Below, one piece after another: positions 10,705 to 63,127 of a stretch of DNA of 64,000 nt (positions are counted from its first letter, which is position 1; each line of letters begins with the position of its first letter). The translations under genes and the position numbers were made by a program. The notes under the pieces were generated by a model. The model saw only the letters and a program-made list of their open reading frames with translations. It did not search any database and was not told the DNA's origin. The stretch is from Eledone cirrhosa. Lineage: Eukaryota. The stretch is from NCBI GenBank assembly GCA_964016885.1, contig OZ024743.1, forward strand, positions 88,784,001 to 88,848,000. Reading direction: 5' to 3'.

Positions 10705-10975
10705 TATGGGTGATGTGTTGTTTCCTTGAGCAAGACACTTTATTTCACATTGCTCCAGTTTACTTAGCTGTAGAAGTGAGATGATAGGGACTGGGGTCCA
10801 TATTCCACTGCAAAGTGGTCGTGGAGGTGCCACGGCAAAAAAGCACCCAGCACTCACTGTAAATGAGGTTGGTGTTAGGAAGGGCATCCAGCTGTAGAAA
10901 TCAAGCCAGCATCATTTCCCGTCCCACCCTTGCAAAAAGCGGACGTAAAATGAAATGATGATGATGATGATGATA
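10705..10975 (+). mobile_element. SINE family B, 5'-truncated, with RTE-like 3' tail
   Basis: ccttgagcaagacactt core; ggttggtgttaggaagggcatccag; ends gcggacgtaaaatgaaatgatgatg. Confidence 0.85.
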
Positions 10976-32477: not shown

Positions 32478-33866
32478 TCATCATCATCATCATCATCAAC
32501 GTTTAACGTCCGTGTTCCACGCTTGCATGGGTTTGGACGGGGGTAGTCCCACTTGAGGCAAGAGTGATTGTCTTGCTCGCATAGGACTGTCTGGCAGGTT
32601 TTCTACAGTTGGATGCCCTTCCTAACACCAACCACATTTACAGTGTGGGTCTGGGAGGTTTTTACCGTGTTGCCTACACGGCCACATTACAGCGTGGACT
32701 GTGTGTTTTTTTGTCGTGACACCTACACGATCTCATTTGTTTCGGCCTCGATGGCGCGGCACCAACATAACTTTACATAGAACGGGGTGGTGTGGATCGG
32801 GTGGGGGTGGTGGTGGTGGGACGGGGTGTATTTTGTTAGAGATGCCTACTGGCTGGAGTAGGTTTTACTATATATTTAGGTAAGGCGGGTCTTCTCTGTT
32901 ACTGAGTACCGCCAAAGGTCTCGGTCCAGTGACATTGTCTTGGAGAGGTGTAAGTGTGTGATGTCGGAGTTTATCAGCTCGTCCCAGGTTTTTCTAGGTC
33001 TGCCTATTCCGTGACTACCGTCTATCTTTATTGCCCTGCACTTTGTTATACAGCTATCGACTTTCATGCGCATCACGTGTCCATACCAACGTAGCCTTCT
33101 CTCGAGTAAACAACATCTGATCCCTCTTATCTCTAATTTTTTCCTTAGTTCGTTTATGCTTTGCCGTTCACGTATATTACTGTTACACATCCAGCGGAGC
33201 ATGCAAGCTTCGTTCCTCTCTAGTCTGCGTATATCCTCTGCACACAATGCCCAGGTCTCACTGCCATGCAGCATTGCTGTTCGTATGCAGGCATCGTACA
33301 ACCTGCCTTTCATTTTTAGTGAGAACCCTTTAGCAGCTAATAGTGGTATAAGCTCTCTGAACTTTTTCCTACCAGTTCTGACTCTAGCTACAGTACTTTC
33401 AGAGCACCCTCCCCCACTGCTGATTTTATCGCCCAGGTAACGGAAGCTGTCCACTATTTCTATAGAACCCTCTGCGCAATTGAAAGAGCTAGTAGTTTGT
33501 GGGCACTTGCTGCTACTTATTGCACCAGAGCACCGGCCACATGTAAAATCTATGTTCTTAGTTAGCTTACCTGTGATCCCACTACATCTTTTATGCACCC
33601 ATACTTTGCATTTAGGACATAAAATGGAGTTTCTACCTACGCCTTTCCTACACACCGAGCACGACCATTTCCCAGAAGGGACCGCCGCCTTGTTTTCTTT
33701 CCTACAAACTAGTACTTTGGTCTTAGCCAGGTTAATTTTAAGTCCTTTTGACTCTAGGCCGTGCTTCCATGTTTGGAATTTCTTCTCTAGCTCGGCCATT
33801 GATTCCGCTATGAGTGTCAGGTCGTCTGCGTATAGGAGTTCCCATGGGCAGCCTGTCTTGAACTCC
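32478..33866 (-). mobile_element. Young 5'-truncated RTE family 1 copy (open ORF 32876-33868)
   Basis: YADD motif, PHD finger, C-terminal domain, 3' UTR and (ATG)n tail; near-identical to 34453-35843. Confidence 0.95.
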
Positions 33867-34452: not shown

Positions 34453-37346
34453 CATCATCATCATCATCATCATCAACGTTTAACGTCCGTGTTCCACGCT
34501 TGCATGGGTTTGGACGGGGGTAGTCCCACTTGAGGCAAGAGTGATTGTCTTGCTCGCATAGGACTGTCTGGCAGGTTTTCTACAGTTGGATGCCCTTCCT
34601 AACACCAACCACATTTACAGTGTGGGTCTGGGAGGTTTTTACCGTGTTGCCTACACGGCCACATTACAGCGTGGACTGTGTGTTTTTTTGTCGTGACACC
34701 TACACGATCTCATTTGTTTCGGCCTCGATGGCGCGGCACCAACATAACTTTACATAGAACGGGGTGGTGTGGATGGGGTGGGGGCGGGGGTGGTGGGACG
34801 GGGTGGATTTTGTTAGAGATGCCTACTGGCTGGAGTAGGTTTTACTATATATTTAGGTAAGGCGGGTCTTCTCTGTTACTGAGTACCGCCAAAGGTCTCG
34901 GTCCAGTGACATTGTCTTGGAGAGGTGTAAGTGTGTGATGTCGGAGTTTATCAGCTCGTCCCAGGTTTTCCTAGGTCTGCCTATTCCGTGACTACCGTCT
35001 ATCTTTATTGCCCTGCACTTTGTTATACAGCTATCGACTTTCATGCGCATCACGTGTCCATACCAACGTAGCCTTCTCTCGAGTAAACAACATCTGATCC
35101 CTCTTATCTCTAATTTTTTCCTTAGTTCGTTTATGCTTTGCTGTTCACGTATATTACTGTTACACATCCAGCGGAGCATGCAAGCTTCGTTCCTCTCTAG
35201 TCTGCGTATATCCTCTGCACACAATGCCCAGGTCTCACTGCCGTGCAGCATTGCTGTTCGTATGCAGGCATCGTACAACCTGCCTTTCATTTTTAGTGAG
35301 AACCCTTTAGCAGCTAATAGTGGTATAAGCTCTCTGAACTTTTTCCAACCAGTTCTGACTCTAGCTACAGTACTTTCAGAGCACCCTCCCCCACTGCTGA
35401 TTTTATCGCCCAGGTAACGGAAGCTGTCCACTATTTCTATAGAACCCTCTGCGCAATTGAAAGAGCTAGTAGTTTGTGGGCACTTGCTGCTACTTATTGC
35501 ACCAGAGCACCGGCCACATGTAAAATCTATGTTCTTAGTTAGCTTACCTGTGATCCCACTACATCTTTTATGCACCCATACTTTGCATTTAGGACATAAA
35601 ATGGAGTTTCTACCTACGCCTTTCCTACACACCGAGCACGACCATTTCCCAGAAGGGACCGCCGCCTTGTTTTCTTTCCTACAAACTAGTACTTTGGTCT
35701 TAGCCAGGTTAATTTTAAGTCCTTTTGACTCTAGGCCGTGCTTCCATGTTTGGAATTTCTTCTCTAGCTCGGCCATTGATTCCGCTATGAGTGTCAGGTC
35801 GTCTGCGTATAGGAGTTCCCATGGGCAGCCTGTCTTGAACTCCTCTGTTATAGCCTGAAGGGCAATAATAAATAGTAGTGGGCTGAGAACAGAGCCCTGA
35901 TGGACGCCAACTTTTACGCTAAACTCTTCACTATATTCGTTGTTAATTCTAACCTTGCTGACTGTTTCTTTATACATGGCTTGTATAGCCCTCACAAGCC
36001 ATTCGTCAACGCCTAGTTTTCTAAGAGCCCACCAGATAATGGAGCGGGGGACTCTGTCGAAGGCTTTCTCCAAGTCGACAAAAGCTAAGTAGAGGGGTTT
36101 ACCTTTAGCTAGGTACTTCTCCTGTAGTTGTCGTACTATGAAAAGAGCGTCTGTGGTACTTTTGCCTGACACAAACCCGAACTGCATTTCATCTAGGTCA
36201 ATTCTCTCTCTGATTAGTTGCGCTATTACTTTTTCCGTGACCTTCATGACCTGGTCGATTAATTTAATGCCTCTATAGTTACTCCTATCTAGGGCGTCTC
36301 CTTTACCCTTATAACAGTTAACGATGATGCTGCTATGCCAGTCCTTCGGAACAACCCCATTCTGTACGACTTGGTTAACTATGCGGGTGACCATGGTGTG
36401 TCCCACCGTGCCAGATGCCTTCAGCATCTCAGCAACTATTTCCGAAGGCCCAGCCGCCTTACCCGTCTTCATATCCTTGATTGCCTTACTTATTATACTC
36501 CCCTCGACTAACACTGCTGGTCCCTCTATTGGGTCGATATGGGGGAGACTGCCTTTCTCCCAATTATTCTCCTCATTTAGTAGCCTTTCATAGTGACACT
36601 TCCAAGCTACCTTCTTATCAGCGTCGGTGATGGCAAGTGTGCCATCGTCGTTTAGTACACACTTCTCCCCGACAATATCACGGTTTTCCTTGACGCATTG
36701 CCTAGCAATCCTGAACACCTCACGTTTTTGGTCATCGCGTTGTAGAACATGCTTGAACTTTCTTTCCTCAGCTTCCCTTCTTGCTAAGTACACTTGTCTC
36801 CTAGCTTCCCTCCTGGCCACTTGATAGTCCTCTCTACTTCCCCCATCCCGCCATACTTTCCAAGCCTGCTTTTTGGCCTTAATTGACCCCTCCACCTTAC
36901 TGTTCCACCACCATGTTACTCTCCTCCTGCCTACAGGCCTGCTCCAGCCACAGACTTCGTCTGTCGCCAACAGCAGGTTTGCTTTCAGAAATTCCCACTC
37001 TCCCTCTATATTGTCCGACTCTAAATGTTCTTCCTTACTGTCGAAAGCATCAAGTAATATGTTTTGAAATTTATTCCTGGCTGTGGGGTCCTTTAGCTTC
37101 CATATTTTCCTCCTGAGGATAGTCCTCTTCTGTTGTCGAGTACGTCTCGTCCTGACTATGAGGTCGCTAATTATCAGTCTATGTTGGGAGGTGCATTCTT
37201 CATGGGGGAGGGATTTAGTGTTAACAACAGACACTCTGTCACGTCTTCTGGTAAGGATATAATCTACCTGGCTTGTGTGTTCCCCGGATCTATAGGTGAT
37301 CAGGTGATTGTCACGTTTTTTGAAGTTAGTGTTACAGATAGTTAGG

Positions 37347-37351
<5 letters not shown>
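34453..37351 (-). mobile_element. RTE-clade LINE family 1, 5'-truncated, young
   Basis: Uninterrupted ORF, about 380 nt 3' UTR, terminal stem-loop and (ATG)n tail; 5' end abuts (TA)n. Confidence 0.95.
34853..37351 (-). CDS. RTE ORF: C-terminal part of APE endonuclease, reverse transcriptase, and embedded PHD finger
   Basis: TYRSG...VDYIL...SQHRL (APE end); KGKGD...NYRGIKL; QFGF; FVDLEKAFDRV; GVHQGSVLSPLLF; YADD; CSVC-CPKC-H-C-CGRC; FRYLG. The first ~43 aa of the listed 875 aa ORF are SINE/(TA)n read-through. Confidence 0.93.
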
Positions 37352-37435
<84 letters not shown>

Positions 37436-37439
<4 letters not shown>

Positions 37440-60559: not shown

Positions 60560-61576
60560 ATGTTACTTCAACCCATGCACATGGAAAGGTGGGTCTTCTG
60601 CAGTACTATATGGTGAGGTGGGGAGAGATGTGATGCATACTTGAGCCCACTAGATGTTGCTACATCCCATGCCCCTGGGAGGGTGAGTCTTCTGCAGTAC
60701 TACTTCACACCAGAGATCTTGATCCTGTGTCATCGACTTTAAGAGGTGAAATTGTATGAGAGCATCTTTTATCACCTCACCCTAAAGTTTCCTAGGTCTA
60801 CCTCTTTCATAGCTTCCATTAACTTTGAGCACCCTGCACTTTTTTATGCAGCTGTCATCCTTCATATGCATTACATGTCCATACCACCACAATTTCCTAT
60901 CCTGCACACTGCATCTAATCCCTCTTATGCCCAGTTTCTCTCTCTGTTAATTTATGCTTTGCCGTTCATGAATATTACTATCACACATCCATCAGAGTAT
61001 GCAAGTTTCATTTCTTTCCAGTTTTTGTAGGTCCTTTGCACACAGCACCCAGGTTTCACTACCATGCAGCATTGCTGTTCATATACATGCATCATACAAT
61101 CTGCCCTTTATTTTGAGAGAAAAACCTATTATAGTTAGCAGTGGTAGTAGCTCCCTGAACTTTTTCCATCCCATTCTCACTCTGGCTACAGTACTCTCAG
61201 AACACACTCCTCCACTGCTAATTTGGTCACCTAGGTAACAGAAATTATCGGCTACTTTTACAAAGCCCTCTGAGTATCTAAAAGAGCTAGTATCCTATGG
61301 GCTCTTGTTACTTATTGCACCTGTGCATCAACCACATATAAAACCTATATTCTTTGCTAGCCTGCCTGAGATCCCACTACATTCCTTGTGTACTCATAGT
61401 TTGCATTTGGGACATAGGATGGAATTTCTACCTACTCCTTTCCTGCACACTGAGCAAGGCCATTTCCCTCAGGGAATCTGGGCCCTGTTTTCCTTCTACA
61501 TAGTAGAACTTTAGTCTTTGACAAGTTAACTTTAAGACCTTTTGATCCTAGGCCATGCTTCCAGGTTTGAAATTTG
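60560..61576 (-). pseudogene. Decayed RTE family 1-related copy, including the PHD region
   Basis: Homologous to 34860-35760, with stops and frameshifts. Confidence 0.85.
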
Positions 61577-62247: not shown

Positions 62248-62473
62248 TTGTTGTTCCTATTTGCTGCTGTGCTGATAAGCGTTTTGGCATTGATACACTG
62301 GTTGGATGCCCTTCCTAACACCAGCGCCACTTTACACCATGGACTAGGTGCTTTTATTTGTGCCACCAGCACTAGAGAGGATGTCTTACTAGGCTCAAGG
62401 GCCCTCTCTACCCCTCCATTTTACACCATGGTCATAAAAAAAAAAAAAAAAAATTGATAGACACATTTTTCAA

Positions 62474-63127
62474 ATGCAGGAGGGTGCTATAGAAGTGGTG
62501 GATAGCTTTCGGTACCTAGGAGATCAGATTAGCATGGGAGGAGGCTGTTCCGAGGCCATAGTATCTAGAATAAGGACGGGTTGGAAGAAGTTTAGGGAGC
62601 TGCTTCCTCTGCTGATGAAGAAGGGTTTCTCCCTGCGTACGAAAGGCCGATTGTATGATGCCCGTGTGAGGAGCGCGATGCTGCATGGTAGTGAGACATG
62701 GGCAGCAACTGCAGAGGATATGCGACGGTTGGAGAGAAATGAGGCAAGCATGCTCCGTTGGATGTGCAGTATAAATGTGCGTGAACGACCCAGCATGAAT
62801 GTGTTGAGAGAGAAACTGTGTCTAGGAGGGATAGAATGTAGTGTACGGGAGAGGAGACTGAGGTGGTATGGACATGTGATGCACATGGAGGATGACCGAT
62901 GGGTGAAGAAGTGCCAGGAAATGCCAGTTGAAGGAAGACGTGGTAGAGGTAGACCACGAAAAACATGGGCGGAGGTGGTGAGAACAGATCTCAGATCATT
63001 AAAGCTCACGGTGGAGATGACGAAGGACCGTGACGAGTGGAGAGATGCTGTGCTGAATAAGACCCGTCCCACCCTTGCGAGCAGGGAAGAGCGGACGTAA
63101 AATGATGATGATGATGATGATGATGAT
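62474..63127 (+). mobile_element. 5'-truncated RTE family 2 copy; ORF 62474-63100 runs directly into the (ATG)n tail
   Basis: IEVVDSFRYLGD...LHGSETW...RLRWYGHV...RGRPRKTW...KTRPTLASREERT*. Confidence 0.92.

Follow-up and report, generated by a model that had tools for sequence, protein, structure and literature searches.

A PHD finger within the reverse transcriptase of an RTE-clade LINE in Eledone cirrhosa

A LINE of the RTE clade in Eledone cirrhosa was confirmed to encode, within its reverse transcriptase (RT), a PHD finger of the canonical C4HC3 type. The finger was found in a window of 64,000 nucleotides (the whole stretch of DNA that was analysed), in which the element is present as a young, 5'-truncated copy (Table 1). 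The RT-internal PHD finger is real, defines a clade and is under selection, and no description in print was found in the literature searched. Where LINEs insert is generally attributed to their endonuclease; for the finger we infer a role in target selection.

Identity of the finger and of its element

From the letters of the DNA alone, the original prediction had placed a C4HC3 PHD finger between RT motifs of an RTE LINE, and this proved correct. The minus-strand translation has the exact C4HC3 spacing (WSCSVC-RKGVGRNSIL-CPKC-KVWVH-KRC-SGITGKLTKNIDFT-CGRC), and the finger lies in frame inside an 831-aa open frame, between RT motifs 6 and 7. The HMMER check that had been proposed gave 31.4 bits for PF00628 (PHD) on a 100-aa piece and 33.5 bits on a 55-aa piece (cut-off 24), whereas the whole 831-aa ORF scored 23.6 bits, slightly below the cut-off. 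All 24 of 24 finger members matched PF00628 at E<0.01. A C1 or RING identity was ruled out by the far higher PHD scores, although C1_2 came to 25.6 for the 55-aa piece (cut-off 26). Judging from its ligands, the finger would coordinate two zinc ions.

Table 1. Positions in the window of the PHD-bearing element, its motifs and related copies
Feature	Position	Strand	Remarks
C4HC3 PHD finger, Pygopus/TAF3-like	35507..35644	-	translation, Pfam, profile match, predicted fold
RT motif 6 (GLKINLAKTKVL)	35687..35722	-	
RT motif 7	35408..35422 (FRYLG); 35408-35440 (IEIVDSFRYLG)	-	
RT catalytic motif 5 (YADD)	35798..35809	-	finger downstream of YADD
88-aa segment, RT motif 6 (KTKVL) to motif 7 (FRYLG)	35423..35686	-	exceeds the segment of PHD-less RTEs by about 63 aa
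Open frame of 5'-truncated young RTE copy	34853..37348	-	APE endonuclease end, RT with PHD, thumb, C-terminus
3' UTR	34456..34852	-	terminal (GAT)7 tail, then TA repeats
(TA)n array	37349..37436	.	at 5' truncation junction
Second young copy, 5'-truncated	32479..33866	-	99.3% identical; PHD intact at 33530-33667
Older subfamily copy, truncated within finger	20193..21261	+	last two Cys at 20217-20228
Decayed third-subfamily copy	60686..61575	-	finger 61325-61462, eight ligands plus stops
PHD-less RTE from a different lineage, decayed, with GAA tail	15456..16130	+	in-genome control

The finger had been said to be intact in two young copies, and the two fingers indeed show 0 nucleotide differences. 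An artefact of tandem duplication was rejected as an explanation for the two copies, as their flanks differ and the divergence of 0.7% corresponds to the within-family spread. For the decayed copies, in which the finger had been called recognisable, this held for the third-subfamily copy, where all eight ligands are retained and one stop falls on the cage tryptophan, but not for the older subfamily copy, whose 5' truncation falls within the finger, so that just the final two cysteines remain. The short linker noted in the PHD-less RTE (given there as 15455) was found as well.

In the genome (3.0 Gb; 56,918 first-look candidates), the 100-aa region was identical in 150 of 150 scored candidates, a lower bound of at least 150 identical copies, and all 20 copies fetched for long frames hold the finger region in an open frame. 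In many of these 20, one frame codes for a 1056-aa protein that comprises the APE endonuclease, the RT with its PHD, the thumb and a short C-terminus. The genome contains the PHD-bearing RTE family in abundance, and the family is very young. Family-A copies that were examined are 98-100% identical, often 5'-truncated and carry a GAT tail at the end. At least two further PHD subfamilies are present, a young one (L037, stop-free frame, 77% amino-acid identity) and a decayed one. Traits of the RTE clade found here are a single ORF with APE and RT, 5' truncations and a microsatellite 3' tail, the last being shared with RTEs of the plant, fish and nematode branch (PMC6007223).

Near-identical sequence was encountered under 16 organism labels; no RNA data set was among those listed with it, an outcome that speaks neither for nor against expression. 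Horizontal transfer was not accepted as the cause, since depth was below about 21 in the two labels compared (X4 and X7), against up to 10^6 in X1. Nor was there a sign of a spliced-out cassette among the 15 of 47 joints listed from a very deep-coverage run, none of which removes the finger.

Distribution, conservation and predicted fold

Non-conservation of the Cys/His ligands had been named as an observation that would speak against the original prediction; the contrary was seen, with 8/8 ligands invariant across 103 aligned homologues. When proteins were searched by the insert region, the eight ligands were complete in 114 of 117 parsed proteins (121 examined; this set is biased towards the insert). 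Selection by the RT core only (n=120) gave 90 proteins with the strict pattern, 16 non-matching and 14 unparsed ones, most of the 16 being truncated, frameshifted or altered in spacing, with the start of the finger still visible. RT motifs picked out 79 metagenome loci; the site is covered in 48 of them, and 47 of the 48 carry the finger, L097 being ambiguous. Named hosts include Hydractinia, Octopus, Mercenaria and the catfish Neoarius, thus a cnidarian, molluscs and a catfish, and Octopus bimaculoides supplies the closest named homologue (63% over residues 500-700). In clusters of a protein atlas, with few taxa recorded, RVT_1 and PHD are paired in 42-68% of members.

The spacer between motifs 6 and 7 falls into two classes among 150 representatives (50% identity), one of 23-27 aa and one of 84-93 aa. 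RTEs of plants, fish and nematodes (Orobanche, Quillaja, Hemibagrus, Plectus) have the same single ORF with APE and RT and 42-50% identity in the RT core, but the short spacer, whereas in the PHD clade the long spacer holds the PHD finger. In a quick maximum likelihood tree of 50 chosen proteins with a hand-set root, from which the insert columns, P0144 and the long-branch P0356 were left out and which contained no curated RTE reference set, all 37 PHD-bearing rows and the PHD-less P0271 formed one branch with an SH-aLRT of 98 (99 in an earlier version). The PHD-less sister group, with its 23-27 aa spacer, includes plant, fish and nematode LINE proteins, the nearest PHD-less relatives, which we take to be RTE. 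The PHD finger marks a whole RTE subclade, and a single gain with rare loss would be the simplest reading of its distribution. The Branchiostoma protein P0144 groups with the PHD-bearing RTs, but the match of its protein model ends at motif 6. P0271, P0233 and P0169, proteins of the PHD clade without all or part of the insert, are either dead copies with deletions or cases of rare, genuine loss.

The finger is supported to be under purifying selection. The dN/dS analysis that had been proposed gave 0.085 for the finger, 0.032 for the RT core and 0.071 overall, values from a single pair (one family-A and one family-B copy) with dS near saturation (1.5-2.8). In the same pair, the linkers flanking the finger share only 50-55% identity. 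Column conservation among 101 homologues was 0.67 for the finger, 0.63 for the thumb and 0.62 for the endonuclease.

AlphaFold modelling, also proposed beforehand, predicted a cross-brace PHD fold with a core pLDDT of about 90. Nearly all structural neighbours among the matches listed are PHD-containing chains, with the PHDs of Pygo2, TAF3 and fly Pygo ranked on top, at weak fold-match scores (no Foldseek E below 0.001; best Z 4.9). A profile of 24 fingers compared with the PDB ranked Pygo1/2 first (E 1e-7). The full-length protein model (pLDDT 88, pTM 0.83; 88-90 within the finger blocks) resembles L1 ORF2p (Z 27), and R2 was absent among the best 50 structural matches listed. The motif-6 strand and the downstream hairpin stay intact around the finger in this model, and the finger is predicted to be a separate module on a loop, with an RT core that remains L1-like.

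Possible ligands and competing explanations

For Pygo1, sections of PMC2726290 describe a K4me2 cavity formed by W366, Y341 and D352 on a base of V350 and A356, and place I357 at T3. According to the same sections, W366E, V350E and A356E as well as mutations of I357 and E360 abolished binding or nearly so, and E360 is needed for H3K4me3 binding. The RTE finger shares the C4HC3 fold with Pygopus and TAF3 and keeps four of the five Pygopus K4-methyl cage positions: among 103 fingers, an aromatic residue stands for Y341 in 101, V for V350 in 101, S for A356 in 101 and W for W366 in 100, and the T3 position (I357) is I or V in 102. In two RT-selected sets the cage tryptophan was present in 82/82 and 17/17, and A or S at the A356 position in 80/82 of the former. 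In contrast to Pygopus and TAF3, the finger lacks the acids D352 and E360 (an acid occurs in the D352 loop in 5/82 and 0/17; the E360 position is mostly G, S or T), has shorter loops and no BCL9-binding extension, and is net basic, with a median charge of +8 (range +1 to +13) compared with -6 for Pygo1 by hand count.

Excerpts of PMC3241642 name an invariant W as hallmark of K4me3 readers and an acidic cluster without aromatic cage for K4me0 readers. The finger does not resemble the H3K4me0 readers of the BHC80/AIRE type, as the acidic cluster ahead of the first cysteine is absent (K at -3 in 80/103, an aromatic residue at -2) and the cage is present. It also differs by its canonical C4HC3 pattern and cage from atypical DNA-binding PHDs (BRPF2 PHD2, PHF6), which have unusual ligands, an extra sheet and no histone residues; this difference is compatible with DNA binding. 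Compared with H3K4me2/3 readers, it has the cage W and the aromatic wall and lacks the acidic residues. The proposal that the finger may read chromatin gains new sequence support from the near-invariant Pygo-type cage. The acids typical of H3 readers are missing, and the finger is strongly basic.

The position within the RT was compared with R2 elements. The alignment pairs R2Bm residues 424-671 with profile positions 497-737, which puts the beginning of the 6a loop (672-677) at the beginning of the insert, about 11 positions ahead of the finger's first cysteine; the same motif 6-7 insertion with the same aligned start is found for R2Bm (8GH6), R2Tg and R2Pm. On this alignment, the finger site appears equivalent to the 6a loop. 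In R2Bm, the loop lies between motifs 6 and 7, reads an upstream target motif, is required for nicking and is called unique to R2, as described in parts of PMC10499050, and vertebrate R2 employs it likewise according to a portion of PMC11601368. However, R2 6a is a short loop reading a fixed rDNA motif, whereas here a folded 46-aa zinc domain sits in an APE-type element with dispersed insertions.

The 3' junctions of family A, collected by exact match to a 25-base anchor after dropping five refetched duplicates, end in (GAT)6-9 in 45 of 46 cases. An (A[TC])3 motif continues 27 of the 46, against a background of about 2% of window positions and about 2% after any GAT. By eye, the motif was seen in 7 of 12 readable junctions of family B and in 4 of 30 of the PHD-less GAA-tailed family, two of these four looking like one duplicated site. 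The insertion preference of family A for TA repeats is real, but it is not assignable to the finger because tail homology, endonuclease and age all differ between the families. The TA-repeat flanks make any target site duplications unreadable. Site choice of RTEs has been linked with the tail repeat as well as with binding of protein at a T stretch (PMC6007223). Several young PHD-RTE copies (L011, L015, L036, L037, L049) adjoin each other or copies of family B, as would be expected if the same TA arrays had received insertions repeatedly. At L041 (C2 near 25.62 Mb), a TA array followed by an identical unique 15-base stretch on both flanks suggests an unusually long target site duplication.

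The reading preferred here, which has about an even chance of being right, is that the finger reads methyl-lysine (most likely H3K4me2/3) together with DNA and docks the RT on chromatin. The pocket of aromatic, V, S and W residues would bind methyl-lysine, probably K4me3 rather than K4me2 because Pygo D352 is missing, and the basic surface would contact DNA. By analogy with R2 6a, the finger would face the flanking target duplex and serve docking or site choice. The RT would thereby be docked on nucleosomal target DNA during target-primed reverse transcription (TPRT), and the endonuclease and the (GAT)n tail would set the exact TA-rich nick site. Confidence is highest for the methyl-lysine pocket, lower for the DNA-contacting surface and lowest for an orientation towards the target duplex. 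Against docking speak the absent D352 and E360 acids, the median charge of +8, a poor match for a basic H3 tail, the weak fold-match scores and a 6a equivalence drawn from sequence alignment. PHD-less sister RTEs, moreover, have proliferated in plants, fish and nematodes, so that RTE retrotransposition in general does not need the finger. The site bias seen concerns DNA sequence (TA repeats), for which histone reading is not needed. The wider proposition, that the RT palm of a widespread animal LINE subclade carries an H3K4-methyl reader at the DNA-reading loop of R2 and directs TPRT towards TA-rich DNA next to nucleosomes with the mark, is tentative and on balance somewhat doubtful.

The missing acids and the strong positive charge would fit a finger that is a nucleic-acid anchor only, replacing the R2 6a loop and gripping flanking target DNA (possibly TA repeats) or element RNA. 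A DNA-binding role at this site is a serious rival, although the anchor as sole function is rather unlikely. It draws on the aligned 6a position, on the (A[TC])3 contrast of families A and B with the PHD-less family, and on precedents: the cross-brace finger of piggyBac binds DNA sequence-specifically (portions of PMC5861402), and BRPF2 PHD2 and PHF6 ePHD2 bind DNA and not histones (portions of PMC6222470). However, the latter source in the same portions describes DNA-only PHDs as atypical and without histone-binding residues, whereas the RTE finger is canonical with a near-invariant cage. Differences in tail (GAT versus GAA), endonuclease and age also confound the TA contrast, and other PHD-RTEs have varied 3' repeats. 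Cage conservation implies a ligand without naming which, and some PHD fingers bind non-histone proteins according to passages of PMC3241642. The finger might bind a methylated or unmodified host protein or tether the RNP to chromatin before integration, with no part in site choice; in an element with a single ORF, accessory functions must reside in the RT protein. This appears distinctly unlikely, as the 6a-equivalent position points towards the target duplex and the conserved isoleucine of the T3 pocket fits an H3-like ligand.

That PHD-less RTEs function, that P0271 is nested in the clade and that the insert is absent or incomplete in P0233 and P0169 could also indicate that it is a passenger which the RT tolerates, or a zinc module with a purely structural role. 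This is very improbable in view of the dN/dS of the finger, the conservation of PHD columns about like thumb and endonuclease, the conserved cage, the retention at 47 of 48 loci and the lack of a finger-removing joint among the 15 of 47 joints listed.

If a methyl-lysine reader in the RT is true, it would offer a direct, mutable handle on whether LINEs read chromatin at insertion, and the motif 6-7 loop would have been used twice as a targeting port, in R2 and in RTE. The loop would then tolerate a whole folded domain, which is relevant to gene insertion tools based on retrotransposons. As the family is young and abundant in the genome, insertion maps can test the idea.

Known systems and further observations

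LINE-encoded PHD fingers are known from CR1/L2 elements. The original prediction had named them in ORF1 of some CR1/L2, which parts of PMC4120745 bear out: the PHD lies in ORF1 or upstream of the endonuclease, and two CR1 subgroups match Pygo structures (PDB 3zpv, 2vpb). Here, in contrast, it lies inside the RT and in a different superfamily; the same parts term the LINE ORF2 structure highly constrained. RTE-2_OV of Octopus vulgaris, from the genus of the nearest named homologue, is likewise a single-ORF RTE with a microsatellite 3' end, but is set apart by its description, with a C2H2 finger, 1109 aa and no PHD mentioned in the available portion of PMC9115989. The C-terminal cross-brace finger of piggyBac is PHD/RING-like, belongs to a transposon enzyme and binds DNA, but to the ends of its own element, with C5HC2 ligands and in a DNA transposase (sections of PMC5861402).

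A full-text literature search, with Repbase, Dfam, subscription journals and supplements outside its scope, returned in the texts available no description of a PHD inside the RT of an RTE. A search by term in the accessible text of papers on gastropod LINEs (PMC11203168), a shrimp element (PMC3849965) and trematode CR1 (PMC8392823) found no RT-internal PHD. Automated Pfam annotation already pairs RVT_1 with PHD in many records, and an unpublicised database note is therefore plausible.

Some database entries were conspicuous. The P0141 cluster holds a LINE protein deposited under the name of a bacterial symbiont MAG and is probably host DNA in the bin. RTE ORFs are fused into host gene models in P0020 and P0144 (slc22a21 in catfish, kif22 in amphioxus), probably as annotation artefacts. 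A distant PHD-RTE (L077, 47% protein identity) has a 3'-terminal motif before its ATG/GAT tail in common with window positions 34470-34495, a candidate recognition signal for the RT.

The window contains further related sequences. A copy of another RTE subfamily at 62438-63100 (+), 63% identical, is truncated just downstream of the finger and has an open thumb frame. A 322-aa frame with a CCHC motif at 39687-40655 (-) presumably resembles the C-terminal half of an L1/Tx1-type LINE ORF2. Short repeats that share the 3' UTR of the element occur at 10808, 19446, 37594, 43043, 54761 and 59830, among others, and are probably SINE-like partners or heavily truncated copies.
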